Positions 2,371 through 54,406 of a stretch of 64,000 bases of DNA are shown here, one piece after another. Where the stretch lies: positions 2,080,001 to 2,144,000 of the forward strand of contig OZ252149.1 in NCBI GenBank assembly GCA_965248755.1. The letters run 5' to 3'. A program made the position numbers and the translations under genes. Each line of letters begins with the position of its first letter. Position 1 is the stretch's first letter. This DNA is from Candidatus Latescibacterota bacterium. GTDB lineage: Bacteria > Latescibacterota > CBDEFO01. The notes under the pieces were generated by a model. The model saw only the letters and a list, made by a program, of their open reading frames with translations, did not search any database and was not told the origin of the DNA.

Positions 2371-3471
2371 ATGAATAAAACGAAAAGACCGATTTTCTAC
2401 ACTGGCCTGATGCTCTTTATCGCCTTGAATACACTTGTCTGCACAGGGGATCTTTTCGGATCTCAGTCCCCGATTGAATCTATCGGGGACAAGCTCGTGG
2501 GCGATTTCGACGGAGACAATGACGTAGATCTCTCTGATTTTGTTCTTTTTGTGGATGTGTTTGGAACGACGTTCAGTTCAGCGGATTGGAATCCTGTGTT
2601 CGATTTGGATGATGATGGCGAGATCAGTTTGTCCGACTTTGTGATCTTTGTGCACAACTTCGGCAAGAGTGTAGAGAAAAATGTCTCCGTCAAAACTGAA
2701 AATCAAAGAACTATATTGTCTTTTCCCGACTATACCCTCGCGGTACAGTATGGCGAACCCGTTGGCATTGTTTCGCTTAAACTTACTGATCAACAGACGG
2801 ATTTTGTGCACCGGAACCTGCCCTTAGGAGACTAGGAATGGTTCAAGATAGATCTGAACGGTAGTCAGGTATGGCTAAAACTGATTATGCCTGAGTGGAG
2901 TAGCCCTGTTCTGCAAACGGCTGGTGATCCTGTTGTCCTGAGGTTTACCAGAGAAAACGCAATTGCTCCAGGTATCACTCTGGGGATCGAATACATCCTG
3001 AAGCGCGACAGACCAGAATTCGATATACACTATTCTATCATCAATTCATCTGGACAGACGCTGAAAAAGCCTTATGTGATGATCGGCTTTCCGGGATTCT
3101 CAAATTACGAACAGGTTTCCTCTGTTGAAACTGCGCTTGAAACCCGTGTCACCGCAAGCCCTTACACCAATTTCCGCGATGAGGCAATTGCGCTTAATAG
3201 AGCTGAATACCTGCTGTTGCGTCACGATGTGTCTCCTCGTTCAGGTTCCCTCGATGTCCTAAAGGGAGTTGTCTCTATTAAAGAATCCAGCCGGATCATC
3301 ACACTGGAATCTTCTTTTGTGCCTGACAAGACATACAGTGAGGTCTACTCTGCCCATGTCAATAAACCTGCGTACTTGACGAGCCACATCTATGCCTTTC
3401 TCACCGATATCCCGAATGGAGAAGAAAGAAGAATCACTATCCATTACACCGTCTATGAGAAAGAACCATAG
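2371..3471 (+). pseudogene. Secreted dockerin-like (paired EF-hand) protein interrupted by an in-frame TAG at 2833-2835
   Basis: ORFs 2233-2835 and 2887-3471 share a frame and read ...LPLGD*EWFKIDLNG...KLIMPEW; GDFDGDNDVDLSDF...DLDDDGEISLSDF motifs. Confidence 0.7.
2468..2488. repeat. Short palindromic element inside CDS, in frame (encodes SPIESIGD)
   Basis: ccccgattgaatctatcgggg. Confidence 0.85.
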
Positions 3472-7304: not shown

Positions 7305-7380
7305 TGGAGCCGGCGAAGGGACTCGAACCCCCGACCTGCTCATTACAAGTGAGCTGCTCTACCAGCTGAGCTACACCGGC
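7305..7380 (-). tRNA. tRNA-Thr(TGT)
   Basis: Reverse complement GCCGGTGTAGCTCAGCTGGTAGAGCAGCTCACTTGTAATGAGCAGGTCGGGGGTTCGAGTCCCTTCGCCGGCTCCA; cloverleaf with CCA. Confidence 0.97.
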
Positions 7381-21878: not shown

Positions 21879-21923
21879 CTGTCCCCGACCCCCAATTGAA
21901 TCTAATGGGGGCTCAATCGGAGA
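21879..21923. repeat. Nested pair of short palindromic elements
   Basis: ctgtccccga[cccccaattgaatctaatggggg]ctcaatcggaga. Confidence 0.65.
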
Positions 21924-34125: not shown

Positions 34126-34201
<76 letters not shown>

Positions 34202-34289: not shown

Positions 34290-35110
34290 GTTGAGAATTT
34301 GTTGATCTGTAGCGATATTGGGGACATGAAAAATTGACCTCGCTGCAGAGGAAGAACATTTTGAGTACTATAAGACTGGTCGGCTGCGTTGTCGTAAGTG
34401 TAAATTGATCCCCAATAGACTCAATTGGGGATTGACCAGAAAACTGGCCACTACCTTTCTGAGAGAAGAGTCGAATTACTCCCCCCGATAGATTCAATCG
34501 GGGGTGCGATACCAGGTTCCATACACAAGGAAGACCATGGAACGCTGGTATAGGATCATCAGAAAGGCAATCTACCATCACACTTTCAAGGAGTTTGAAC
34601 CCCTAGAAGGTGAACTTGAGATGGATGAAACTCTCTTCGGTGGTAGGAGACCTGGTAAAAGAGGTTGGGGTTCCGAAGGCAAACAGATAGTCTTTGGCAT
34701 CTATCAGAGAAAGGGTAAGGTGTTGACCTTTGCTGTCCCCTCAAGGAGTCGTGACTCACTACTGCCTCTTATTACCTAACACAGCAGACCAGGGAGCTTG
34801 TATTACACCGATAGTTGGATAGCCTACGCCTCGCTTTCTATCAGCGGCAACCGCCTGGTAGTGCCAAAAGAGAAGGGCATAGCGAAGGGAAAAGATCACC
34901 TCAATGGGGTGGAAGGCTTCTGGTCGTATGCCAAACACTGGCTCCATCAATATCAAGGCGTTGACAAAAGCTTCTTCCACCTTTACCTTAAAGAGGTAGA
35001 GTGGCGTTTCAACCACCGCCACGAAAATCTACTTCCTCTTATGAGAAAGCTACTCGATCAACAGGCTGTAAGTGACATGAGTTAGTGGAACTTTAGTTAT
35101 GCATTACCCT
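34290..35110 (+). mobile_element. IS1595-family transposase pseudogene
   Basis: Degenerate Zn ribbon (*PRC...CRKC), GELEMDETLFGG..GKRGWG, in-frame TAA at 34777-34779, YTD, HLNGVEGFWS, YLKE.EWRFN; two palindromic elements inside (34410-34430, 34483-34503); boundaries approximate. Confidence 0.85.
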
Positions 35111-41524: not shown

Positions 41525-43666
41525 ATGAGATTTGTAGTCTCATGTACTATTCTGATTATGTCGGTTGCTCTGAACGCTTCTGCATATACTCAAGAGAACT
41601 TGTTGGTAAACAGTGACTTGCGCCAAGGAGAGCCCGGCGAGAATAATTTCGGCTGGGTGATGGATTTGGCCAAGGACCAGAAGAGTGAATGCACCGTTGT
41701 CAACGGTCGCAGGCCCGGAAGTCGGGCTATACGCATCTACAACGACGAACTGGGCGAATCTTACATCATACAAGAGATCGCCGTTCGACCCTGGCGCTGG
41801 TACGTAGCGGAGGTGTGGGTCAACAGCGAGGGGATGCGTAACCTCGGTTTTGCCCCGTACCTTATGCTGCAGGGAGGCCGCGGTGTGAGCGGAAGACATA
41901 ATTTTGATGACGCATGGGAATTGCCGAAGGCGGGTTGGCACCAGCTGCGATTGATCGAACACACAACTGATTCAGATCGTCTGACATTGAAGTTAGGAGG
42001 CCAAGGCTGGAGCGGTGAGATGCTATTCACTGAACCAGTGGTCCGCGAATCCAGCATGCTTGAGGCCACCCGGGCGCTCTGGCAGACTCATCATCCGGCA
42101 CCTACCCCTTACGAGCACCACCTTATCCCTTGGGAGCCTAAAGGCGATCAGGGTCCGCGTGGGTACGCCTTCCACAAACGCAACTTCGCCAGGGTGGCTC
42201 GCAACTATCCTAACTCTTTCGAAATCTGGGGTCGCTTTAACCCAAGCCCAGACCCGGAGGGACGTATCTCGTTGTGGCTGCCGCCTGGCAAGTGCGAGAT
42301 GGTGATCGACAGCGACCTGGAAGCGGGCGAGTTGGCAGTCGGATATGTCCAGTACGAATGGCACGGTGGTTCTCAGCTCCCGATGCCGATCTACTTCCAG
42401 GGGGTCGAGCCGCCGCAGGTAACCCCTCCGAAAAGAGCGGTCACGATGATCACCGTGGCTCCGGAGACTTTCAACAACTGGGAAGGTGGACGAGGGGCCA
42501 TGGTGCGCGACTTAAAACGCTTCGGCTTCACCCGTATGGAAGTATGGGGACGCAGTGATGTTCGACCGTATTACGCCGAGGGGATATCCAGCGCCAACCA
42601 ATGGTCACCGAACTGGGACTTCGATGCCGAAAAGTACCCCGATGCCCGCGGGGTTAGCCTGAATGGAAAACACGCTAAACTGATGTGCCCATCCTACCGA
42701 GGTCCAGCTTTCACCCTTCAACTCGCCAACGCTAAAGAATCTTCCCGCTACGCCTCCGCCCTGTCCCTGGACGACGAGTGGTACGCCATGAGAGGCAGCC
42801 AAAGTCCGACGATATGCTTCGGCGACCGCTGTATGGAACGTTGGAATGGGTGGGTCTCTGAACATAAACCCGAGCTGGAGAAGGTGAGTCCGAAGATCTT
42901 CGCCAGGCAGCCGCACAAATATCCCGGGCACTACGATGCGTGGCTTCTTTTCCGCGGTTACCTGGTCGCCGAGAAATATGCTCTGATCCGGCAAGCGTTC
43001 TTTGAAGCCCTCAAGGAGACCCAGGTGAAAACGACTCCGTATCCGTGGGTGCAGGCTTACATAGGCGGCGGGCCAGTCATCGGCCTGCATTCAAACAAGT
43101 CTCTGGCAGAGGCTCTGGATTATGTCGCTAACATGGACTACTCAAGCGCGCGCGTATTGCGGGAGAACGTTGCCAGATTGGCGCCCCAGACCGGCAAGAA
43201 ACTCTTATTCACTATCTCGCCGGGATACCTGGGAAGCCCACCTGGTGACGCGCGCTCCCAGGTACTCGAAGTAGTCATGGGTGGTTCACAAGGAGTCCAC
43301 GTCTGGTGCTATCACATAGGGACTGACACCGGTCACATGGTAGATATGGCCGAGGCCATCAAGATGTTCTCCCCCGTGGAAGACATAATCCTGGACGGCG
43401 CGGTTCAGGCCGGCTACACGAGCGACACAAACTCGGTGAACCTGTTGGCCAGAGTGAAAGACGACGAAAGCGTCTTGCTCGTGTCGGACTACTCACCGAA
43501 CCCCGGCCGCATGAAGGTGTCGGTGCCCGGCGAGGCGGAGTTGGAAGTCACCGACCTGTTCACCGACCAAGTCGTCGCACGCCTGGACGCAAAGGAACGA
43601 TCGTTCGCGACAACCCTGAAGCGGACCTTCACAGCAAGGCTGTACCACTTGCAGTCCACAAAGTGA
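41525..43666 (+). CDS. Secreted CBM-like + putative glycoside-hydrolase-like protein (array paralog A)
   Basis: Signal peptide; NLLVNSD, RPWRWYVAEVWV, MCPSYRGP, LDDE, SPPGDARSQVLE. Confidence 0.7.
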   Translation: MRFVVSCTILIMSVALNASAYTQENLLVNSDLRQGEPGENNFGWVMDLAKDQKSECTVVNGRRPGSRAIRIYNDELGESYIIQEIAVRPWRWYVAEVWVNSEGMRNLGFAPYLMLQGGRGVSGRHNFDDAWELPKAGWHQLRLIEHTTDSDRLTLKLGGQGWSGEMLFTEPVVRESSMLEATRALWQTHHPAPTPYEHHLIPWEPKGDQGPRGYAFHKRNFARVARNYPNSFEIWGRFNPSPDPEGRISLWLPPGKCEMVIDSDLEAGELAVGYVQYEWHGGSQLPMPIYFQGVEPPQVTPPKRAVTMITVAPETFNNWEGGRGAMVRDLKRFGFTRMEVWGRSDVRPYYAEGISSANQWSPNWDFDAEKYPDARGVSLNGKHAKLMCPSYRGPAFTLQLANAKESSRYASALSLDDEWYAMRGSQSPTICFGDRCMERWNGWVSEHKPELEKVSPKIFARQPHKYPGHYDAWLLFRGYLVAEKYALIRQAFFEALKETQVKTTPYPWVQAYIGGGPVIGLHSNKSLAEALDYVANMDYSSARVLRENVARLAPQTGKKLLFTISPGYLGSPPGDARSQVLEVVMGGSQGVHVWCYHIGTDTGHMVDMAEAIKMFSPVEDIILDGAVQAGYTSDTNSVNLLARVKDDESVLLVSDYSPNPGRMKVSVPGEAELEVTDLFTDQVVARLDAKERSFATTLKRTFTARLYHLQSTK

Positions 43667-44997: not shown

Positions 44998-45024
44998 CCT
45001 GTCCTCGAATGACTCTATCGGGGG
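44998..45024. mobile_element. 27-bp palindromic insertion element
   Basis: Absent from the homologous site 46742/46743. Confidence 0.85.
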
Positions 45025-45076
45025 ATGGATTTTCAAACGTAATCGGCGTTCGTTTAGAGAGAAAGAGGAGTTGGCC

Positions 45077-46660
45077 ATGAAGAGTGTCTGGATGGGGATG
45101 TTGATTCTGGGTCTGGCCGGTGTTTCCGCCTCCGACAATGACGGCAACCTGCTTGCAAACAGTGATTCCAAAGGAGAAGCCAACATGAATGATGCTAATG
45201 CTGCCCGAGGGAAGGTCATCTACAACCTGGACTGCACTCAGTTCTTTATGGGGTCGTTCGGTCCCATTGTCCCCGAGACGATCGACAAGTTCGTGGACAC
45301 GCACGCTGCTCTCGGAGTCACGGATCTCTTCATCAACGTCAACGCAAAGCGCACCAACTACCGGAGCGATGTATGGGAATCATATTGGGACGGCTACGAT
45401 CCGAGCGTCGGCGACGACCAGGCGTTCTTCGCGGGACTTGACCCGAAACGCAGGTTCGAGACGGGGTTGTTCAAGAACATGCTGGCGCTTCACGAGCAGG
45501 GATGCGACTACCCGAAGAGAATGATCGACCGTGCGAGGCGAAATCGAGTAAAGGGGTGGATCTCGCTGCGAATGAACGACGACCACAACCCCCATCTCGC
45601 GGATCATCCGGCCCACAGCACGATCTGGAAGTCACATCCGGAATGGCGCCTTGCATATGGCCTGGACTACGAACAGCCCGAGGTGCGTGAGCACTATATG
45701 AAACTCGTCCGGGAGGTGTGTTCTCGCTACGACCTGGACGGTCTGGAACTGGATTTTCTGCGTTTCTGGCTCTACTTTCGCGCCGGACGCGAGCACGAAG
45801 GTGCGAAGCTAATGACAGCTTTTGTGGAGCAGGCGCGGCAGGCGACAGAAGAAGCCGCGAAGCGATTGGGGCATCCCGTCGAACTCGCCGTGCGCGTACC
45901 GACAACTCCGTGGATCGCCCGCAGGCACGGATTGGATGCGATCGCCTGGGCTAAGAGAGGGCTAGTGGACCTGATTGTGGTCGGATCGTTTTGGTTCTCC
46001 GTCGATAGTGACATGCCTATCGAGACCTGGAAAGGTCTGCTCATCGGTACGGACGTTGCCGTCGCAGTGCATCTGGAAGACGGGATCAATTCGGGCGACA
46101 GCGGTCGTCATACGATGACGCATGAGGAGATGCGCGGGGTATTGGTGAGCGCTCTGCACCGCGGGGCCGACGCGGTATACTTCTTCAATCTCTTTACGGG
46201 ACCGCATCAGCGCTGGCCGCGTGAGGATCATGACCGGCTGCTGAGGGACGCAGGGTCCTATGCAGAGCTTCGCGCTGGGCCGCGGCGGCATGCGATCACC
46301 ATCATGAACCCCTGGGCGGAGGGTGAGCCGGGTGAAGCCAGGTCGCTCCCTTACGCCGGCATGCACGGTGTCTTCCGCCTTCACATCGGACCGAAGCCAC
46401 TCTCACAACAGAACGCCCGGATTGAGCTGGTGGCGCCGGAACACGATCAGCCGCTGGAGGTACGTCTCAATGGCATCCCCTGTAAATGGTCAGGCCTTGT
46501 CGAAGCCGAACACGTTAAAGCGTCAGGATGGAAAGAGCCTGAACCGCGCCGACACATCTATGACGTGCTCCCGGAGGCCCTGAGCGACGGGTACAATCTG
46601 ATCGAAGTGACCTCCGAGGAAGATGTCAAGATCACGTGGGTAGAGATCTCGGTGCGATAG
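45077..46660 (+). CDS. Secreted GHL10/DUF187-like TIM-barrel glycosyl hydrolase-like protein
   Basis: ISLRMND.H, LDYEQPEVR, RYDLDGLELDFLR, GADAVYFFN; start reassigned to ATG 45077 after GAGGAG. Confidence 0.75.
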   Translation: MKSVWMGMLILGLAGVSASDNDGNLLANSDSKGEANMNDANAARGKVIYNLDCTQFFMGSFGPIVPETIDKFVDTHAALGVTDLFINVNAKRTNYRSDVWESYWDGYDPSVGDDQAFFAGLDPKRRFETGLFKNMLALHEQGCDYPKRMIDRARRNRVKGWISLRMNDDHNPHLADHPAHSTIWKSHPEWRLAYGLDYEQPEVREHYMKLVREVCSRYDLDGLELDFLRFWLYFRAGREHEGAKLMTAFVEQARQATEEAAKRLGHPVELAVRVPTTPWIARRHGLDAIAWAKRGLVDLIVVGSFWFSVDSDMPIETWKGLLIGTDVAVAVHLEDGINSGDSGRHTMTHEEMRGVLVSALHRGADAVYFFNLFTGPHQRWPREDHDRLLRDAGSYAELRAGPRRHAITIMNPWAEGEPGEARSLPYAGMHGVFRLHIGPKPLSQQNARIELVAPEHDQPLEVRLNGIPCKWSGLVEAEHVKASGWKEPEPRRHIYDVLPEALSDGYNLIEVTSEEDVKITWVEISVR

Positions 46661-46788
46661 GTTTCATGCATACGCGGGGAAGCCTTGATAGGGGGGCGAT
46701 CTCCGCTAGAGCTTCAGTTGTTGGGATGGGTTTGCGGAAAGTATGGATTTTCAAACGTAACCGGCATTTATGAAAGGAGAAAGAGCAC

Positions 46789-49059
46789 ATGGCTATGGAG
46801 ATTCTCTTGATGGTGATGGTGATTCTGGGTCTGGCCCGAATTTCTGCCGCCGACAATGACGGGAACTTGCTTGTGAACAGCGATTTCAGCCAGGGCAATC
46901 CGAGCGAGGAGAGTTTCGGCTGGACGGTGGAGCTGGCTGAGGGAGAGAAGAACGAGTGCACCGTGGTAGAAGGGCACCAGCCGGAAACTTACGCAGTACG
47001 TATTTACAATGACGAAAGGAGTTCATCGGGCATCAGTCAGAATGTGGCTGTTAGACCCTGGCGCTGGTATGTGGCCGAGGTGTGGGTTAAGAGCGACGGG
47101 ATGTATCCTTCCGTAGTTGGCTTCTCTTTAAAAGGTGGCCGTAAGAATGGCGTGTGGCGGTACAAAATGGATCTTTATCACAGGCCGAAATCAGGATGGC
47201 GCATGATACGGGTGTACGATCACTCGGGGGACAGTGAGCGGCTGACACTATGGATAGGCGGTGATGCCTGGAGCGGCGAGCTGCTCTTAAGCGAACCCGT
47301 CGTCCGTGAGTGCAGCCAGGTGGAAGCGCTCTCGTACCACCCCAAACCAGCTGACCGCCATCCAGCATATGGCGGTCCTCCCATCGATCCTGAGAAGGGA
47401 CTGCCCGGGTATGCCTTCCTGCGAGCGGACGTCCGCCGGGTAGCTCGTGACTTCCCGAATGCGTTGCGGATCTCGATGGACATCCCGGACCCTGAGGACT
47501 CTGAGGGGAGGGTCGCGTTGTGGCTGCCGGCGGGCATTCGCTTCCTTAAACTGCGACCTCATGGCGGAGGGAAGAGACCCCCAAAAGTGACAGATCTATC
47601 GGGCGGCACAGATGCCCGGGGCGGCATGTACCTCGAGCTGCATACGGGCCCTGGCGAGAGCAACCTGCTGATCGAATCCGACCTGGAGCCGGGCGAGCGG
47701 GCAACGGGGTACGTCTATTACGAGTGGAACGGCGGCTTTCAGCTTCCCAGGCCGGTTGCATTTGAAGGGGTAGAACTGCCGAAGGTCACTGCGCCGAGGC
47801 GAATCGTCACTGCACTTGATGTCTACGGTGCTGCTTACCTGAATTGGGAGAACTTCAAACCTGGCCTGGACGGGCGGGAGGCTATGGTCCGGGACATGAA
47901 ACGTTTGGGCTTCAACCGGTTACAACTATGGGGTGGGGATCCTCGACCCTACGCCAGCATGGGCCTGCAGGGCGCCACCTCCTACGGAGGGAGCTTTTCC
48001 GTGGATGCGGAAAAATACCCTGAGTCGGTCGCTGTCGCATTGAATGGAGAACGTACGAAGGTGATGTGCCCGTCATATCGGGGTCCGGGTTTTAAGACTA
48101 ACCCATGGCTGGAGCGCTTGAGAGACACTGCTGCGATCACTTCGGCGGTGAATCTGGACGACGAGGTTTACCTGATGTCCGGCGTTGGCCCGGTCATCTG
48201 TTTCGACGACCGTTGTATTAAACGTTGGAAAGAGTGGGTGAGCGAGCACAAGCCTGGCCTGGCCGGTATTACCCCCAGGGAGTTCTTCAAGCGGGCGCAC
48301 AACTATCCGGAGCACTACGAGGCATGGTTGAGATTTCGCTGTGATCTGGTGGCCGAGCGGTTTGGCATACTGCGGCAGGTGTTCCATGAAGCGGTCAAGA
48401 AATCCGGTGTGAAGACGACGCCCGAGCCAGAGTTGGGGGCGTTCACAGGCGAGGAGATGTTGATGGGTCTGTCTTCAATTGAGGCCTTGAGCGGGGCTCT
48501 GGATTTTATTTCACCCATGATCTATCTGAATGGGGACGGTGTGCGCAAAGAAGTTGCCAAGATTGCACCAATTAGCGGCGGGAAGCTAGTGGTCTGCCTG
48601 GCACCGGGATATGGCAATAGTCCGCCCGGTGACGCCAGGTCGCAGGTACTTGAAACCGTGATGGGTGGTGCAAGGGGCTTTGTCGCCTGGAACTATGACA
48701 TCGGCCCGATGACTACCGGTCACCTGGCGGATATGTCCGAGGCGATCAAGATGTTTTCCCCCGTTGAGGACATCATTCTAGACGGCGAGCTTCAGCCTGG
48801 ATACGCCGCTGACACTGAATCAGCGAATCTGCTGGCAAGGAAACAGGGAGACGAAACTGTCTTACTTGTCTCGGACTACACACCTGGAGGTGCGCGGGCT
48901 AAGGTAACGGTACCGGGGCAGGCCAGTCTGGAGGTGGTCGATCTTTTCACCGATGAGGTGGTGGCTCGTTTGGATACGAGAAAACGGACTTTTGAAGTCA
49001 AACTCAGACGTGACTTTCAAGCACGTCTCTACCACCTGCGGCCGGCAGGTAGCTCATAG
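46789..49059 (+). CDS. Array paralog B
   Basis: Same motifs as 41525-43666. Confidence 0.75.
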   Translation: MAMEILLMVMVILGLARISAADNDGNLLVNSDFSQGNPSEESFGWTVELAEGEKNECTVVEGHQPETYAVRIYNDERSSSGISQNVAVRPWRWYVAEVWVKSDGMYPSVVGFSLKGGRKNGVWRYKMDLYHRPKSGWRMIRVYDHSGDSERLTLWIGGDAWSGELLLSEPVVRECSQVEALSYHPKPADRHPAYGGPPIDPEKGLPGYAFLRADVRRVARDFPNALRISMDIPDPEDSEGRVALWLPAGIRFLKLRPHGGGKRPPKVTDLSGGTDARGGMYLELHTGPGESNLLIESDLEPGERATGYVYYEWNGGFQLPRPVAFEGVELPKVTAPRRIVTALDVYGAAYLNWENFKPGLDGREAMVRDMKRLGFNRLQLWGGDPRPYASMGLQGATSYGGSFSVDAEKYPESVAVALNGERTKVMCPSYRGPGFKTNPWLERLRDTAAITSAVNLDDEVYLMSGVGPVICFDDRCIKRWKEWVSEHKPGLAGITPREFFKRAHNYPEHYEAWLRFRCDLVAERFGILRQVFHEAVKKSGVKTTPEPELGAFTGEEMLMGLSSIEALSGALDFISPMIYLNGDGVRKEVAKIAPISGGKLVVCLAPGYGNSPPGDARSQVLETVMGGARGFVAWNYDIGPMTTGHLADMSEAIKMFSPVEDIILDGELQPGYAADTESANLLARKQGDETVLLVSDYTPGGARAKVTVPGQASLEVVDLFTDEVVARLDTRKRTFEVKLRRDFQARLYHLRPAGSS

Positions 49060-49074
49060 CACTTTTTTGGAGGT

Positions 49075-49261
49075 TAGCCCATGGCCAAACCTTTCCGAAA
49101 CCGAACACGTCAGAGCATCCGGATGGAAAGATCCTCAGCCGTGACGGGGGAGTTTATGACGTGCGCCCGGACGCCAACAGCCTCTGCTAGAATCTGATCG
49201 AAGTAAGCGCCAAGCACGGTGTTAAGATCACGTGGGCAGGGATCTCGGCGCGACAGGTGTG
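49075..49261 (+). pseudogene. Relic of the GHL10-like 3' end
   Basis: WPNLSETEHVRASGWKDPQP*...KITWAGISAR with internal stops. Confidence 0.75.
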
Positions 49262-49288
49262 CCTGTCCCCGAATGACTTTATCGGGGA
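49262..49288. mobile_element. 27-bp palindromic insertion element
   Basis: Absent from the homologous site 51936/51937. Confidence 0.85.
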
Positions 49289-49366
49289 TTGCTTCCGCCG
49301 GGAAGCGTCGATTGGCGGCCGATCTCTGCTATGGTCTCAGTTGTTGGTACTGGGCTTGTCCAAAGT

Positions 49367-49393
49367 CCTGTCCCCGAATGACTTTATCGGGGG
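49367..49393. mobile_element. 27-bp palindromic insertion element
   Basis: Same site as 44998 and 52015; empty at 46742/46743. Confidence 0.85.
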
Positions 49394-49439
49394 ATGGATT
49401 TTCAAATGTAACCGGCATTCACACAGGAAGAAAGAGGAG

Positions 49440-51731
49440 ATGACTATGAAGAGTGTCTGGGCGGTGATGTTGATTCTGGGCCTGTCCCCGAATGACTCTA
49501 TCGGAGATCTGGCCTCTGCTGCTGCCGCCAACAATCACGGGAACCTGCTTGTAAACAGCGATTTCAGCCAGGGCAAACCGAGCCAGGAGAGTTTCGTCTG
49601 GAGAGTGGAGCTGGCTGAGGGAGAGAAGAACGAGTGCTCCGTTGTAGAAGGGCCTCGCCCGGGAACTAGCGCCGTACGCATTTACAATGACGAACGGAGT
49701 TCATCGGGCATCGACCAAAAGTTCGCTGTTCGGCCCTGGCGGTGGTATGTGGCCGAGGTGTGGGTTAAGAGCGACGGAATGTATCCGTCCGTTGTTGGCA
49801 TGTCTTTGCAAGGTGGCCGTAAGAGTGGTGGGTGGCGGTACTTCATGGATTTGTATCACAGGCCGAAATCCGGATGGCGGATGATACGGGCGTATGATCA
49901 CTCGGGGGACAGTGAGCAGCTGACATTATCGATAGGCGGTGGTGACTGGAGCGGCGAGCTGCTCTTAAGCGAACCGGTTGTACATGAAATAAGCCTAGTA
50001 GAAGCTGTTGGCTACCACCGGTTGCCGGGATACCATCGTAACCCGGCACGGTACGGTCCTTCCTCGGACCCTGCGAAGGGACAGTATGGGTACGCCCACC
50101 AGGAAGGTGATGTCAGCCGGGTAGCCCGCAACTTCCCGAACCCGTTCTATATCAGTGGCCGTATGGACGCCAATGCGCCTGAGGGGAGGATCTCGTTGTG
50201 GCTGCCGGCGGGCATTCGCTTCCTTAAGCTTCGACCTCATGGCGGAGGGAAGAGGCCCCCAAAGGTGACAGATCTATCGGGCGGTGTGGATGCCCGGAGC
50301 GGCATGTACCTCGAGCTGCATACGGGGCCTGGCGAGGGCCAGTTGCTGATCGAGTCCGACCTGGAGCCGGGCGAGCGGGCAATCGGTTACGTCTACTACG
50401 AGTGGAAGGGAGGCTATCAACTTCCGAGGCCAGTCGTGTTCGAAGGAGTGGTACTACCGAAGGTCACCGCGCCGAGACGAATCGTCACTGCACTTGATGT
50501 CTACCGGGCTGCTTACCTGAATTGGGAGAACTTCAAACCTGGCCTCGACGGGCGGGAGGCTATGGTCCGGGACATGAAGCGTTTGGGCTTCAACCGCTTA
50601 CAGCTATGGGGCGGGGATCCTCGACCCTACGCCAGCATGGGCCTGGAGGGCGCCTCCTCCTACGGAGGCAGCTTTTCCGTGGATGCGGAAAAATACCCTG
50701 AGTCAGTCGCTGTCGCATTGAATGGAGAACGTACGAAGGTGATGTGCCCGTCATATCGGGGTCCAGGTTTCAAGGCAAACCCATGGCTGGAGCGCCTGAG
50801 AGAAACTGCTAGCAGAACTTCCTCGGTGAATCTGGACGACGAGGTTTACCTGATGTCTGGCGTTGGCCCGGTCATCTGTTTCGACGACCGTTGTATTAAA
50901 CGTTGGAAAGAGTTGGTGAGCGAGCACAAGCCTGGCCTGGCCGGTATTCCCCCTAAGGAGTTCTTCAAGCGGGCGCACAAGTATCCGGAGCACTACGAGG
51001 CATGGTTGAGATTTCGCTGTGATCTGGTGGCCGAGCGGTTTGGCATACTGCGGCAGGTGTTCCATAAAGCAGTGGAGGAATCCGGTGTGAAGACGACGCC
51101 TGAGCCCGAGTTGGGGGCGTTCACAGGGGAGGAGATGTTGGTGGGTCTGTCTTCAATTGAGGCCTTGAGCGATGCTCTGGATTTTATTTCGCCCATGATC
51201 TATCTGGATGGGGACGGCGTGCGCAAAGAAGTTGCCAAGATTGCACCAATTAGTGGCGGGAAGCTGGTGGTCTGCCTGGCGCCGGGATATCTAGGCAGTC
51301 TGCCTGGCGATGTACGTTCCCAGGTACTTGAAACCGTGATGGGTGGTGCAAGGGGCTTTGTCGCCTGGAATTATGACATCAGGATGACTACCGGTCATCT
51401 GGTGGATATGGCTGAGGCGATCAAAATGTTTGCCCCCGTTGAGGACATCATTCTAGACGGAGAGCTTCAGACTGGATACGCCGCTGACACTGTATCAGCG
51501 AATCTGCTTGCAAGGAAACAGGGTGACGAAAGTGTGTTACTTGTCTCGGACTACTCACCTGGAGGCGCGCGGGTGAAGGTAACGGTACCTGGGCAGGACA
51601 GTCTGGAGGTGGTTGATCTTTTCACCTATGAGCCGGTGACTCGTTTGGATGCGAGCAAACGGACTTTTGAAGTCAAACTCAGACGTGACTTTCAAGCACG
51701 TCTCTACCACCTTCGGCCGGCAGGTAGCTGA
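49440..51731 (+). CDS. Array paralog C
   Basis: Start reassigned to ATG 49440 after GAGGAG; near-identical to B except for a central block. Confidence 0.75.
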   Translation: MTMKSVWAVMLILGLSPNDSIGDLASAAAANNHGNLLVNSDFSQGKPSQESFVWRVELAEGEKNECSVVEGPRPGTSAVRIYNDERSSSGIDQKFAVRPWRWYVAEVWVKSDGMYPSVVGMSLQGGRKSGGWRYFMDLYHRPKSGWRMIRAYDHSGDSEQLTLSIGGGDWSGELLLSEPVVHEISLVEAVGYHRLPGYHRNPARYGPSSDPAKGQYGYAHQEGDVSRVARNFPNPFYISGRMDANAPEGRISLWLPAGIRFLKLRPHGGGKRPPKVTDLSGGVDARSGMYLELHTGPGEGQLLIESDLEPGERAIGYVYYEWKGGYQLPRPVVFEGVVLPKVTAPRRIVTALDVYRAAYLNWENFKPGLDGREAMVRDMKRLGFNRLQLWGGDPRPYASMGLEGASSYGGSFSVDAEKYPESVAVALNGERTKVMCPSYRGPGFKANPWLERLRETASRTSSVNLDDEVYLMSGVGPVICFDDRCIKRWKELVSEHKPGLAGIPPKEFFKRAHKYPEHYEAWLRFRCDLVAERFGILRQVFHKAVEESGVKTTPEPELGAFTGEEMLVGLSSIEALSDALDFISPMIYLDGDGVRKEVAKIAPISGGKLVVCLAPGYLGSLPGDVRSQVLETVMGGARGFVAWNYDIRMTTGHLVDMAEAIKMFAPVEDIILDGELQTGYAADTVSANLLARKQGDESVLLVSDYSPGGARVKVTVPGQDSLEVVDLFTYEPVTRLDASKRTFEVKLRRDFQARLYHLRPAGS
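49481..49507. mobile_element. 27-bp element in frame inside the signal peptide
   Basis: LG[LSPNDSIGD]LA versus LGLA at 45111/45112 and 46829/46830. Confidence 0.85.
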
Positions 51732-51742
51732 TAGCATTTATT

Positions 51743-51937
51743 TTGGAGGAGAGCTCGTGGCCAAACCTTTCCGAAGCCGAACACGTCAGAGCATCCGGAT
51801 GGAAAGAACCTCAGCCGAGGCGCCACGTCTACGATGTGCGCCCGGACGCCATCGGCCTCGGCTACAATCTGATCGAAGTAAGCGTCAAGCACGATGTTAA
51901 GATCACGTGGGCAGGGATCTCGGCGCGACAGGTGTGA
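51743..51937 (+). pseudogene. Relic (64-aa open frame) of the GHL10-like 3' end
   Basis: AEHVRASGWKEPQPRRHVYDV.P.A...GYNLIEV...VKITW matches the C-terminus of 45077-46660. Confidence 0.75.
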
Positions 51938-52014
51938 TGCTTCCGCCGGGAAGCGTCGATTGGCGGCCGATCTCTGCTATGGTCTCAGTTGTTGGTAATG
52001 GGCTTGTCCAAAGT

Positions 52015-52041
52015 CCTGTCCCCGAATGACTCTATCGGGGA
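52015..52041. mobile_element. 27-bp palindromic insertion element
   Basis: cctgtccccgaatgactctatcgggga. Confidence 0.85.
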
Positions 52042-52087
52042 ATGCATTTTCAGACGTAAGCGACATTCATGAAAGGAGAAAAAGGAG

Positions 52088-54406
52088 ATGACTATGAAGA
52101 GTGTCTGGATGGGGATGTTGATTCTGGGCCTGTCCCCGAATGACTTTATCGGGGATCTGGCCTGTGCTGCTGCCGCCGACAATGACGGGAACCTGCTTGT
52201 AAACAGCGATTTCAGCCAGGGCAAACCCAGCGACAGCGACTTCGGATGGAAGCTGGAGATAGCCAAGGACCAGAAGAGCGAGTGCACGGTGGAGACTGTC
52301 AGGCAGCCGGCAGAAGTTGTAGGCACCTCCTACAGACCGGTACTGCCAGGCCAGCGGCCGGGCGCTACAGCCATTCGCATCTACCACGACGAGTTGGGCG
52401 CCTCCCGCATCAGTCAGGAGATCGAGGTTCAGCCCTGGCGCTGGTACGTTGCCGAGATCTGGGTGAACACGGAGGGTATGGCCACCTTTGACTTCTCCCC
52501 CACCATCGCCCTGGAGGGCGGCCGCAGCATTGCCGGTGAGAGCTTTATCTACGATTCCTTCGACTGGCCCCAGAAAGGGTGGCGCCCTCTTCACGTGATC
52601 GCCCATTCGGCGGATCAGGATCGCATAACCCTGACGATGGGTGGGGGCGGGCACACAGTGCGAGTCGGCGGCGGATGGAGCGGGGAGCTGCTCTTTTCGG
52701 CGCCGTCGGTCCGTGAGGTCAGCCTCGTCGAGGCCGCTGGGTACTACCCGTCGGTTAGTAATCGCCACCCCTTCGCGTATAGTCCGCCCATCAACCCGGA
52801 GCGCAATGAGCACGGGTATGCCCTCCAGAAAGGAGATCTCTGCCGCGTGGCCAAAGGGTTCCCGAATCCCCTGTACATCACCGACGGGATGAATACGGAG
52901 GCGCCGGAGGGGCGAGTTTCGTTAGCCCTTCCGCCCGGCATGCGCTTCCGAAAGCACCAGAACAGAAAAATCACCCCGAGCGTCAGCCAGATGTCAAATG
53001 GATTCCAGCGCGTCGAGCTGCCGGCGGGAGGCAACAATTTGGTGGTCGACAGCGAACTCGCCCCCGGCGAGGACGCAGTGGGATACATCCAGTTCGAGTG
53101 GAAGGGCGGGTATCAGCTCCCGACTCCTGTGCGGTTCAAGGGCATCGCGATGCCGGATGTCGCCGCGCCCAAGCGCGCCATGATGACCCTCGGCATTGGC
53201 GGTGGGACGGTCTATAACTGGGACGACAACCAACCGGCCATGGTCCGTGACCTCAAGCGTTTCGGGTTCAACCACCTTGAGACGTGGGGCGGTGACCCTC
53301 GCGGGTTCTACAAGAACGGCATTTACGGCGTTACCGCCTGGGGCGGCGGACCTCGCGTCATGGAGAAGAACCCCGAGGCCCTGGCAGTCACGTTGGACGG
53401 GAATCCCACCAAGGAGGACCTGATATCCCCTTCATACCGGGGCCCCGCCTTGCAGCCCTTTATCGACCGTATCAAGCACACGGCCACGAGGTCGTCGGCC
53501 CTGACTCTCAACGACGAGAACTACCTCGCCTCGGCCAAGAGCGCCGCCATCGGTTTTCACCCCCGCACCATCGAGCGCTGGAAGGAGTGGGTAGCCGGGC
53601 ACGAGCCGGAGCTAACGGGCGTTGACCCCAGCGTGTTCGCCAGACGGCCGCACAAGTACCGCAAGCATTACGATGCATGGCTGCGATTCCGCTCTGACCT
53701 GGTGGCCGAAATGTACGGGATCATGCGGGATGTATTCCACAAGGCCGTCGAAGAGAGCGGCGTGAAGACGACGGAGCGGACGATGCTCGGAGCCTACATC
53801 GGGGGCGGGCCGCTCCACGGCCTGCACGCGAACAAATCACTAGCGCCCGTGCTGGACTACGTCGCGAACATGGTCTATGAGGACGGCTACGGCGTGCGCA
53901 AGACAGTCGCCCGGCTTGCACCGCTGACGGGTAAGAAGCTCGTGATCGCGATTTCCCCCGGGTACCAGTGGAGCCCGCCGGGCGACGCCCGGTCTCAGGT
54001 GCTCGAAGCCCTCATGGGCGGCTCGCAGGGCGTGATTGCCTGGGGATACTACATGGGAGCGACCACCGGTCACCTGGCGGATATGTCCGAGGCGATCAAG
54101 ATGTTTGCCCCCGTTGAGGACATCATTCTAGACGGCGGGATTCAGGCTGGATACGCCGCTGACACTGAATCGGCGAATCTGCTGGCAAGGAAACAGGGTG
54201 ACGAAACTGTGTTACTTGTCTCGGACTACACACCTGGAGGTGCGCGGGCTAAGGTAACGGTACCGGGGCAGGCCAGTCTGGAGGTGGTTGATCTTTTCAC
54301 CGATGAGGTCGTGGCTCGTCTGGATGCGAGAAAACGGACTTTTGACGTCAAACTCAGACGTGACTTTCAAGCACGTCTCTACCACCTGCGGCCGGCAGGC
54401 TTATAG
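52088..54406 (+). CDS. Array paralog D
   Basis: Same family; C-terminal ~110 aa nearly identical to paralog B. Confidence 0.75.
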   Translation: MTMKSVWMGMLILGLSPNDFIGDLACAAAADNDGNLLVNSDFSQGKPSDSDFGWKLEIAKDQKSECTVETVRQPAEVVGTSYRPVLPGQRPGATAIRIYHDELGASRISQEIEVQPWRWYVAEIWVNTEGMATFDFSPTIALEGGRSIAGESFIYDSFDWPQKGWRPLHVIAHSADQDRITLTMGGGGHTVRVGGGWSGELLFSAPSVREVSLVEAAGYYPSVSNRHPFAYSPPINPERNEHGYALQKGDLCRVAKGFPNPLYITDGMNTEAPEGRVSLALPPGMRFRKHQNRKITPSVSQMSNGFQRVELPAGGNNLVVDSELAPGEDAVGYIQFEWKGGYQLPTPVRFKGIAMPDVAAPKRAMMTLGIGGGTVYNWDDNQPAMVRDLKRFGFNHLETWGGDPRGFYKNGIYGVTAWGGGPRVMEKNPEALAVTLDGNPTKEDLISPSYRGPALQPFIDRIKHTATRSSALTLNDENYLASAKSAAIGFHPRTIERWKEWVAGHEPELTGVDPSVFARRPHKYRKHYDAWLRFRSDLVAEMYGIMRDVFHKAVEESGVKTTERTMLGAYIGGGPLHGLHANKSLAPVLDYVANMVYEDGYGVRKTVARLAPLTGKKLVIAISPGYQWSPPGDARSQVLEALMGGSQGVIAWGYYMGATTGHLADMSEAIKMFAPVEDIILDGGIQAGYAADTESANLLARKQGDETVLLVSDYTPGGARAKVTVPGQASLEVVDLFTDEVVARLDARKRTFDVKLRRDFQARLYHLRPAGL
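52129..52155. mobile_element. 27-bp element in frame inside the signal peptide
   Basis: cctgtccccgaatgactttatcgggga; encodes LSPNDFIGD. Confidence 0.85.

Follow-up and report, generated by a model that had tools for sequence, protein, structure and literature searches.

A 23-nucleotide hairpin as a small mobile repeat in a Latescibacterota genome

Four neighboring paralogous genes of a Candidatus Latescibacterota bacterium carry in their 5' regions a 27-nucleotide (nt) palindromic segment that is present at some places and precisely absent from the same places in sister genes. What is this segment, does it move, and by what route? The genes lie in a stretch of 64,000 nt (hereafter the window; GenBank assembly GCA_965248755.1, contig OZ252149.1, positions 2,080,001 to 2,144,000 of the forward strand). 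An earlier note, made from the sequence of the window alone, saw in the segment a minimal non-autonomous mobile unit of 27 nt that preserves the reading frame, adds short peptides to proteins and might be mobilized by an HUH enzyme. Here the genome holding the window (G000; 4.54 Mb, one contig) is compared with a genome of the same genus (G001; 4.6 Mb) and with genomes of other taxa. The segment is one form of a small non-autonomous repeat, real and mobile, that occupies hundreds of sites in the genome.

Filled and empty sites of a conserved hairpin

The 27-nt pattern matches the window exactly (no mismatches) at six places, all on the + strand, and 100 shuffled versions of the window give no match. 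Alignment of the leaders of four paralogs opens three gaps, each exactly 27 nt long and at the positions already reported, which confirms the six filled copies and the three places with empty sites, together with the single mismatch flanking site iii. No gap in this leader alignment is accompanied by a target duplication. Only site ii is coding (signal peptide, +9 amino acids, aa), sites i and iii being non-coding. The copies and empty sites are as follows.

44998..45024, +: tailed hairpin (4-nt tail plus 23-nt hairpin), site i, in the leader of the gene at 45077
45111..45112, +: site ii of the same gene (signal peptide), without the hairpin; the G001 ortholog has it
46742..46743, +: site i without the hairpin, which the G001 ortholog has
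46829..46830, +: empty site ii; likewise empty in G001
49262..49288, +: tailed hairpin, site iii, non-coding; likewise filled in G001
49367..49393, +: tailed hairpin, site i; likewise filled in G001
49481..49507, +: tailed hairpin, site ii, in frame in the signal peptide (+9 aa); neither G001 nor the run X7 contig has it
51936..51937, +: empty site iii, from the alignment of paralog leaders
52015..52041, +: tailed hairpin, site i; exact match, leader alignment
52129..52155, +: tailed hairpin, site ii, in frame in the signal peptide (+9 aa); likewise filled in G001

The two genomes were compared over 2.0 of the 4.6 Mb of G001, at uniquely matched sites with an identity of at least 88%. No recognizable core of the repeat is present in the other genome for 28 of 167 copies in G000 and 25 of 163 in G001 (53/330 sites, a few of which are rearranged or nested forms), and a minimal non-autonomous mobile unit is thereby supported. 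In the window, three sites differ in G001 (45111/2 and 46742/3 filled, 49481 empty), and a contig from a separate study (run X7) lacks exactly the 27 nt of site 49481. The alternative alleles in G001 and run X7 rule out an assembly artefact. G000 thus contains a dispersed unit of 20–27 nt with both filled and empty sites.

The exact 27-mer occurs seven times in G000, six of them in the window. Its 21-nt core has 574 copies at up to three mismatches, a number that rises to 576 when position 7 may take one further letter; the same search of the reversed and complemented genome yields none. At no more than one mismatch there are 402 matches in G000 and 419 in G001, and among 39 further genomes of the phylum three contain a single match each. 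In 406 of the 542 distinct copies the two bases that border the core are complementary to one another (240 expected), and because these outer bases co-vary, the conserved unit, as judged from the aligned copies, is a 23-nt hairpin, consisting of a pyrimidine, the 21-nt core and a purine, with a 7-bp stem and a 9-nt loop. Stem pair 5:17 also co-varies (30 double changes against 3.1 expected). The window 27-mer, which had been taken for the unit, is a minor subtype carrying an unpaired 4-nt 5' tail on the same 7-bp stem and 9-nt loop, and 27 nt is one of several net gains. Its fold has a z-score of −3.7 in the copy at 49262 and about −1 in two copies with stem mismatches. The tailed subtype has 25 copies in G000 and is tightly clustered; none of 5000 random draws was equally clustered. 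In G000 copies are densest within 2.9–3.3 Mb of contig C1 (36 copies in 3.0–3.1 Mb), where the tailed subtype forms another cluster; this region may be imported DNA.

The family as a whole is a short palindrome of high copy number lying mostly outside genes, as are CGTC-tagged repetitive extragenic palindromes (REPs) and Ssn-related motifs (SRMs). Only 43 of the 576 copies lie deep inside long open reading frames (ORFs), where 320 are expected from crude ORF calls. Other short repeats are enriched 3.6- to 5.8-fold as hosts of the hairpin, heptamer repeats hosting about 19% of its copies, and 82 of the 576 are nested inside another copy of the hairpin itself.

Wherever polarity is readable in the sequences, the ancestral state is the empty one. 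Sites i and iii are empty in more distant paralogs. An insertion sequence (IS) is represented in G000 by 10 empty copies; in G001 the hairpin interrupts its transposase frame. In two other multi-copy elements 56 of 71 and 76 of 86 copies are empty. The 71-copy element holds the hairpin in 15 copies, at a single junction; a 444-aa ORF adjoining the inspected copy of this element has no Pfam match at 1e-5. In three proteins the in-frame translated hairpin amounts to about +6 (PheS), +7 (Fmt) and +7 residues (MeaB-like protein) relative to the best matches in PDB, and the insertion in PheS directly precedes the conserved LLRT motif. The three genes are:

G000, contig C1, 3558918-3560078: PheS gene with hairpin
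G000, contig C1, 1339169-1340119: Fmt gene with hairpin
G000, contig C1, 3866490-3867527: MeaB-like gene with hairpin

The hairpin therefore adds short peptides to proteins, in these three as in signal peptides, just as the earlier note had proposed. That note had also allowed for the opposite polarity, with empty sites as deletions, but outgroup paralogs are empty and PDB homologs are shorter. Deletion by hairpin slippage is ruled out as a general cause, because empty alleles hold bases that are absent from filled ones and outgroups lack the hairpin.

Junctions, reading frame and origin

Junctions were read at 34 polymorphic sites with a net gain of 14–28 nt; rows below 88% identity, poor anchors and repeated junctions were left out, and two rows represent one junction with the loop flipped. 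The net gains are 15 (two sites), 18 (three), 19 (six), 20 (eight) and 27 nt (ten), with one site each at 21, 22, 24, 25 and 26. In the +19 form the hairpin stands in place of four target bases, and the +20 form has in addition one base, often a purine foreign to the target. The +27 form is the hairpin plus four bases, which are sometimes a true duplication and, in the window subtype, a foreign tail. At the junctions target bases are found replaced by those of the donor, and a 4-nt tail can stand to the left or to the right of the hairpin. The absence of target-site duplication, correct for the window sites, does not extend to the family, in which 22 of 542 distinct copies lie between 4-nt direct repeats (3.2 in shuffles, with a maximum of 9) and 45 between 3-nt repeats (13.9 expected). 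Such frequencies are not the fixed-length duplication of a miniature inverted-repeat transposable element. A purine is found at −2 in 446 and a pyrimidine at +2 in 400 of the 542 copies.

Targets are varied, without a constant tetranucleotide, and the 32 empty sites analyzed are not generally hairpin loops (p = 0.56). The idea that the loop acts as a guide fits the window sites and fails on 85 junctions from metagenomes. Among the 82 nested copies 36 are of the +19 type, and in most of these the same four bases of the host loop have been replaced, whichever way the inner copy points. Nested double units also occur as single differences between G000 and G001 (+38 and +40).

Frame preservation is not a property of the unit, since 17 of the 34 polymorphic sites shift the frame. 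Where a stop-free frame of at least 200 codons spans the empty allele, 11 of 15 gains are in frame, against 6 of 19 elsewhere (Fisher p = 0.037). Given this excess and the small number of copies deep in ORFs, we attribute frame-keeping largely to a filter by selection; yet +27 is a true peak, and it is found at 5 of 19 non-coding sites.

A dispersed module allows the exchanged tract to be delimited. It has 39 copies in G000, 20 of them filled. Almost all the filled copies share a single junction, and most have the same loop variant, which makes up about 8% of the family; in three the loop is inverted. The compared stretches of G001 contain 22 copies, and of the seven that can be paired with a G000 locus five are filled only in G001 and two in both genomes. 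Two fills found only in G000 were also recognized. At two module loci, both alleles keep locus-private variants that lie 10–11 and 16 nt before the junction on its left side and 25 nt beyond it on the right. These two loci suggest that the hairpin can pass from one homologous repeat to another while taking very little of the flanking sequence along.

Scanned for exact matches, species genomes gave at least 104 stretches. Among the first 80 listed, which were analyzed, 47 come from taxa other than Latescibacterota, including Deltaproteobacteria, Nitrospirota, Elusimicrobia, Ignavibacteria, Anaerolineales, and Beta- and Gammaproteobacteria. In 26 of these 47 loci the core is the stem-loop of a CGTC-type REP, and in 11 it carries the window-type tail; the subtype of the window is the commoner one in these other taxa. 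In metagenomes the tailed form was found in 114 stretches with 85 distinct junctions, at 35–71% GC. When exactly 27 nt are taken out, an NTS-type REP reappears in 26 of the 85, and when 26 or 28 nt are taken out, in 7–8; this precision and range establish the tailed 27-mer as a real, widespread and precise unit. Comparison of these loci indicates that the hairpin began as the stem-loop of a CGTC-type REP or Ssn-related motif and now spreads alone. Only 4 of 576 copies in G000 retain both a CGTC-like 5' tag and the base 3' of the stem, and five have SRM-like left contexts. Viral contigs contain no exact match to the hairpin.

The genes that host the window sites are tandem paralogs with a common leader and signal peptide:

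45077..46660, +: predicted secreted, with a profile match to GHL10 (glycoside-hydrolase-like)
46789..49059, +: paralog of 756 aa, no Pfam or NCBIfam match
49440..51731, +: paralog, no Pfam match
52088..54406, +: paralog of 772 aa, no Pfam match

Four tandem predicted secreted paralogs of 713–772 aa without Pfam match (41525-43666 and 46789-54406) adjoin the GHL10-like gene and are possibly uncharacterized glycoside hydrolases. The six filled window copies probably reflect at most three insertion events, later reshuffled by exchange among the paralog leaders. In the orthologous array of G001 (contig C8, 735001-755000), hairpin copies are located at rearrangement points: in head-to-tail dimers the left flank comes from one site and the right flank from a different one, and the leader shows a short tandem duplication, after which come three near-identical extra paralogs. 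Nine further core copies are found in the window, at 115, 2468, 5499, 9696, 17697, 21890, 25916, 34410 and 34483, three of which are:

2468..2488, +: core of the commoner subtype; +27 nt relative to the empty G001 ortholog, with a 4-nt tail at the right
21890..21910, +: core nested within a second hairpin copy (net +19)
34410..34430, −: core between 4-nt direct repeats

An Rfam search of the window recovered two tRNA genes, at 7308-7380 (−) and 34126-34198 (+), and nothing else.

Candidate genes and routes of spread

In the likeliest mechanism, to which we give even chances, the hairpin spreads by short-patch copying of single-stranded DNA, as suggested by its gain or loss in the dispersed module while flanking variants 10–25 nt away are kept. 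A folded hairpin with a few bases of donor flank, a single-stranded piece of about 25–55 nt, would pair through its flanks with an exposed single-stranded target and be fixed by replication; once it is released, host repair and replication proteins would suffice. Where flank homology is long, dispersed repeats and the hairpin itself would gain copies more than once at an identical position. Microhomology would open new sites, with three to four target bases overwritten (+19/+20) or four bases added (+27), the latter by duplication or donor carry-over, and selection would then retain only multiples of three inside genes. The discrete hairpin, its gains at both new and homologous sites, the overwriting and carry-over of flanks, and the REP ancestry are the observations on which this mechanism is built.

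Several observations weigh against it. All 22 four-base repeats have the form YNNR, which, with the sharp peaks at 23−4 and 23+4, resembles the product of an enzyme with a 4-nt stagger. The microhomologies at new sites are 2–6 nt, short for unaided annealing; the five core stem pairs other than 5:17 do not co-vary; and across the whole family neighboring copies share strand in 16 of 27 cases and loop variant in four (4.8 expected). The module result bounds the exchanged tract, with informative variants at two loci and no direction for either. Neither an intermediate nor an enzyme was found in our searches.

An enzyme that exchanges strands with a 4-nt stagger, either a type II topoisomerase or a tyrosine recombinase, which we take to work as in Tn916 coupling sequences, could insert the hairpin, and its overlaps, resolved to donor or target, would yield a duplication, a foreign tail or a replacement. 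Besides the YNNR repeats and the two size classes, the flanking purine and pyrimidine and the tails on either side agree with it; even so we regard it as rather unlikely, because +20 is as common as +19, other sizes occur, and 3-nt repeats are enriched too. Furthermore, no hairpin adjoins the xerC/xerD-like or prophage integrase genes inspected, except two copies about 2 kb from one of them, and the literature searched offers no support. Directly after one xerD-like gene lies a single broken four-helix-bundle gene (G000, contig C1, 2579539-2579850), flanked by heptamer repeats and not by hairpins. No mobility gene recurs among 112 ORFs between close hairpin pairs (inspected by eye) or among 139 ORFs beside copies in other taxa, and neither the IS110 family nor a GxxExxY nuclease was found in G000.

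The earlier note had suggested a search for an HUH/RAYT or GIY-YIG gene flanked by dense copies. Peel-and-paste transposition by an HUH enzyme (IS200/IS605 TnpA or RAYT) would account for a hairpin with a tetranucleotide tail and for the precise, duplication-free insertion of the tailed subtype, and GTAG-type REPs are present in G000. We nevertheless consider it highly improbable: the Y1 transposase profile (PF01797), which matches 6 of 14 control genomes, has no match in G000 or G001, even though these two genomes differ in their filled sites; there is no fixed target tetranucleotide; and the junctions include duplications and replacements, which are not known as HUH products. Of GIY-YIG genes, G000 has only a 608-aa frame of UvrC type and no intact ssn-type gene, and six 5' remnants of the latter (an NTS-type repeat and the first codons):

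G000, contig C1, 1272066, 1852182, 2714256, 2979151, 3031499 and 3547848: ssn-type remnants, four of them in two duplicated pairs

One remnant is fused to tailed hairpins on both sides. In G001 an intact ssn-type gene of 93 aa lies between NTS-type repeats, the same layout as ssn of PMC11893778. Of 27 loci in other genomes retrieved with the G001 protein as query, core-type REPs lie no more than 250 nt from the gene in four, the flanking REPs are of the type in which many G000 copies reside in four, and the upstream NTS contains a tailed hairpin in one.

An Ssn-type nuclease could cut hairpin-bearing single-stranded DNA and supply pieces or primed ends, a role compatible with short-patch copying as its first step. 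In favor are these gene layouts, the identity of the hairpin with the SRM stem-loop in other taxa, and PMC11893778, which describes SsnA as cutting only single-stranded DNA near such hairpins and remarks on an IS-like layout. The same paper names the tag and the post-stem base, kept together in so few G000 copies, as what SsnA needs, and places the cut further upstream than the tail reaches. With no intact gene in G000, and a gene no commoner in core-bearing genomes (13/34) than in same-phylum genomes nearly all of which lack the core (14/39; p = 1.0), a part for Ssn seems unlikely.

Template switching during replication would copy a nearby hairpin in cis to a new site without any free intermediate. 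The tight clustering of the tailed subtype points this way, as do three independent sites within 220 nt in one orientation, but the clustering could reflect DNA imported from a donor rich in that subtype, neighboring copies in the whole family show no sharing, and gains in modules scattered over the chromosome have one junction in common; we think this route very unlikely. Target-primed reverse transcription of a hairpin RNA has hardly any credibility for us, even if duplication or deletion at the target and tails of variable length resemble the junctions of retroelements lacking long terminal repeats. G000 does contain two reverse transcriptase (RT) genes, but both are of defense types, the retron having its effector and the other being DRT8, no core copy lies between or upstream of the retron genes, and junction features occur on both sides of the loop. 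The first locus (L186:7484-9370) is a retron II-A RT (a 266-aa frame, shorter than the model) with an St85-type effector; the second (L185:7787-9310) is a DRT8-type RT.

Relation to known repeats and significance

The SDR elements of cyanobacteria (Elhai 2008) reportedly nest in themselves and in heptamer repeats, and may already show similar junctions. By description, the hairpin resembles them in its size of about 20–27 nt, its dispersal and its precise insertion into short targets; it differs in phylum, in its REP origin and in its 19/20/27 junction spectrum. Like the Rickettsia palindromic elements (RPEs), it forms in-frame palindromic insertions that are translated in housekeeping proteins; unlike RPE-1, it is far smaller and seldom lies deep in long ORFs. 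A single-stranded hairpin substrate is likely here, as for REP/REPIN-RAYT and IS200/IS605 systems, in contrast to which G000 and G001 have no Y1 gene, and the hairpin has no GTAG tag and no fixed target tetranucleotide. Yeast mitochondrial GC clusters such as GC42 (PMC4478555) are likewise short GC-rich palindromes with presence or absence among strains, exchange through homologous flanks and no known enzyme; however, GC42 belongs to an organelle, is 42 nt long and has fixed 2–3-nt repeats, whereas the hairpin is half that size with mixed junctions.

The closest relatives are the CGTC-tagged REPs (PMC3733652) and the NTS and Ssn-related motifs (PMC11893778), whose stem-loop, in the loci compared here, is the hairpin in Deltaproteobacteria, Nitrospirota and others. 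CGTC REPs are also short palindromes, mostly intergenic with some in frame in genes, and no dedicated transposase is known for them (PMC3733652); the role of Ssn outside Neisseria is described as unsettled (PMC11893778). The G000 hairpin has lost the tag, the 3' tail and the dimer layout, and in its bare or 4-nt-tailed form it enters REPs, IS copies, genes and itself, with readable before-and-after junctions. The literature searched, which covered few subscription journals, contains no account of this 23-nt hairpin family or its junction rule.

How palindromic repeats of 20–30 nt arise and move is an open question, to which dozens of before-and-after junctions can now be applied. In this family the question becomes testable, since the exchanged tract is short, the REP origin can be traced and candidate proteins have been named; the family also displays a route by which housekeeping proteins acquire insertions of 6–9 residues. 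A broader and more speculative reading, of which we are doubtful, is that Ssn recognition motifs have shed their stem-loops, which would make up a class of 23–27-nt 'micro-homing' elements found across phyla, Ssn-type single-strand nucleases releasing hairpin oligonucleotides that would be pasted by short-patch annealing into new and homologous sites. If so, Ssn would be what mobilizes CGTC REPs as well as the smallest insertion elements of bacteria, and would steadily supply proteins with such short insertions.

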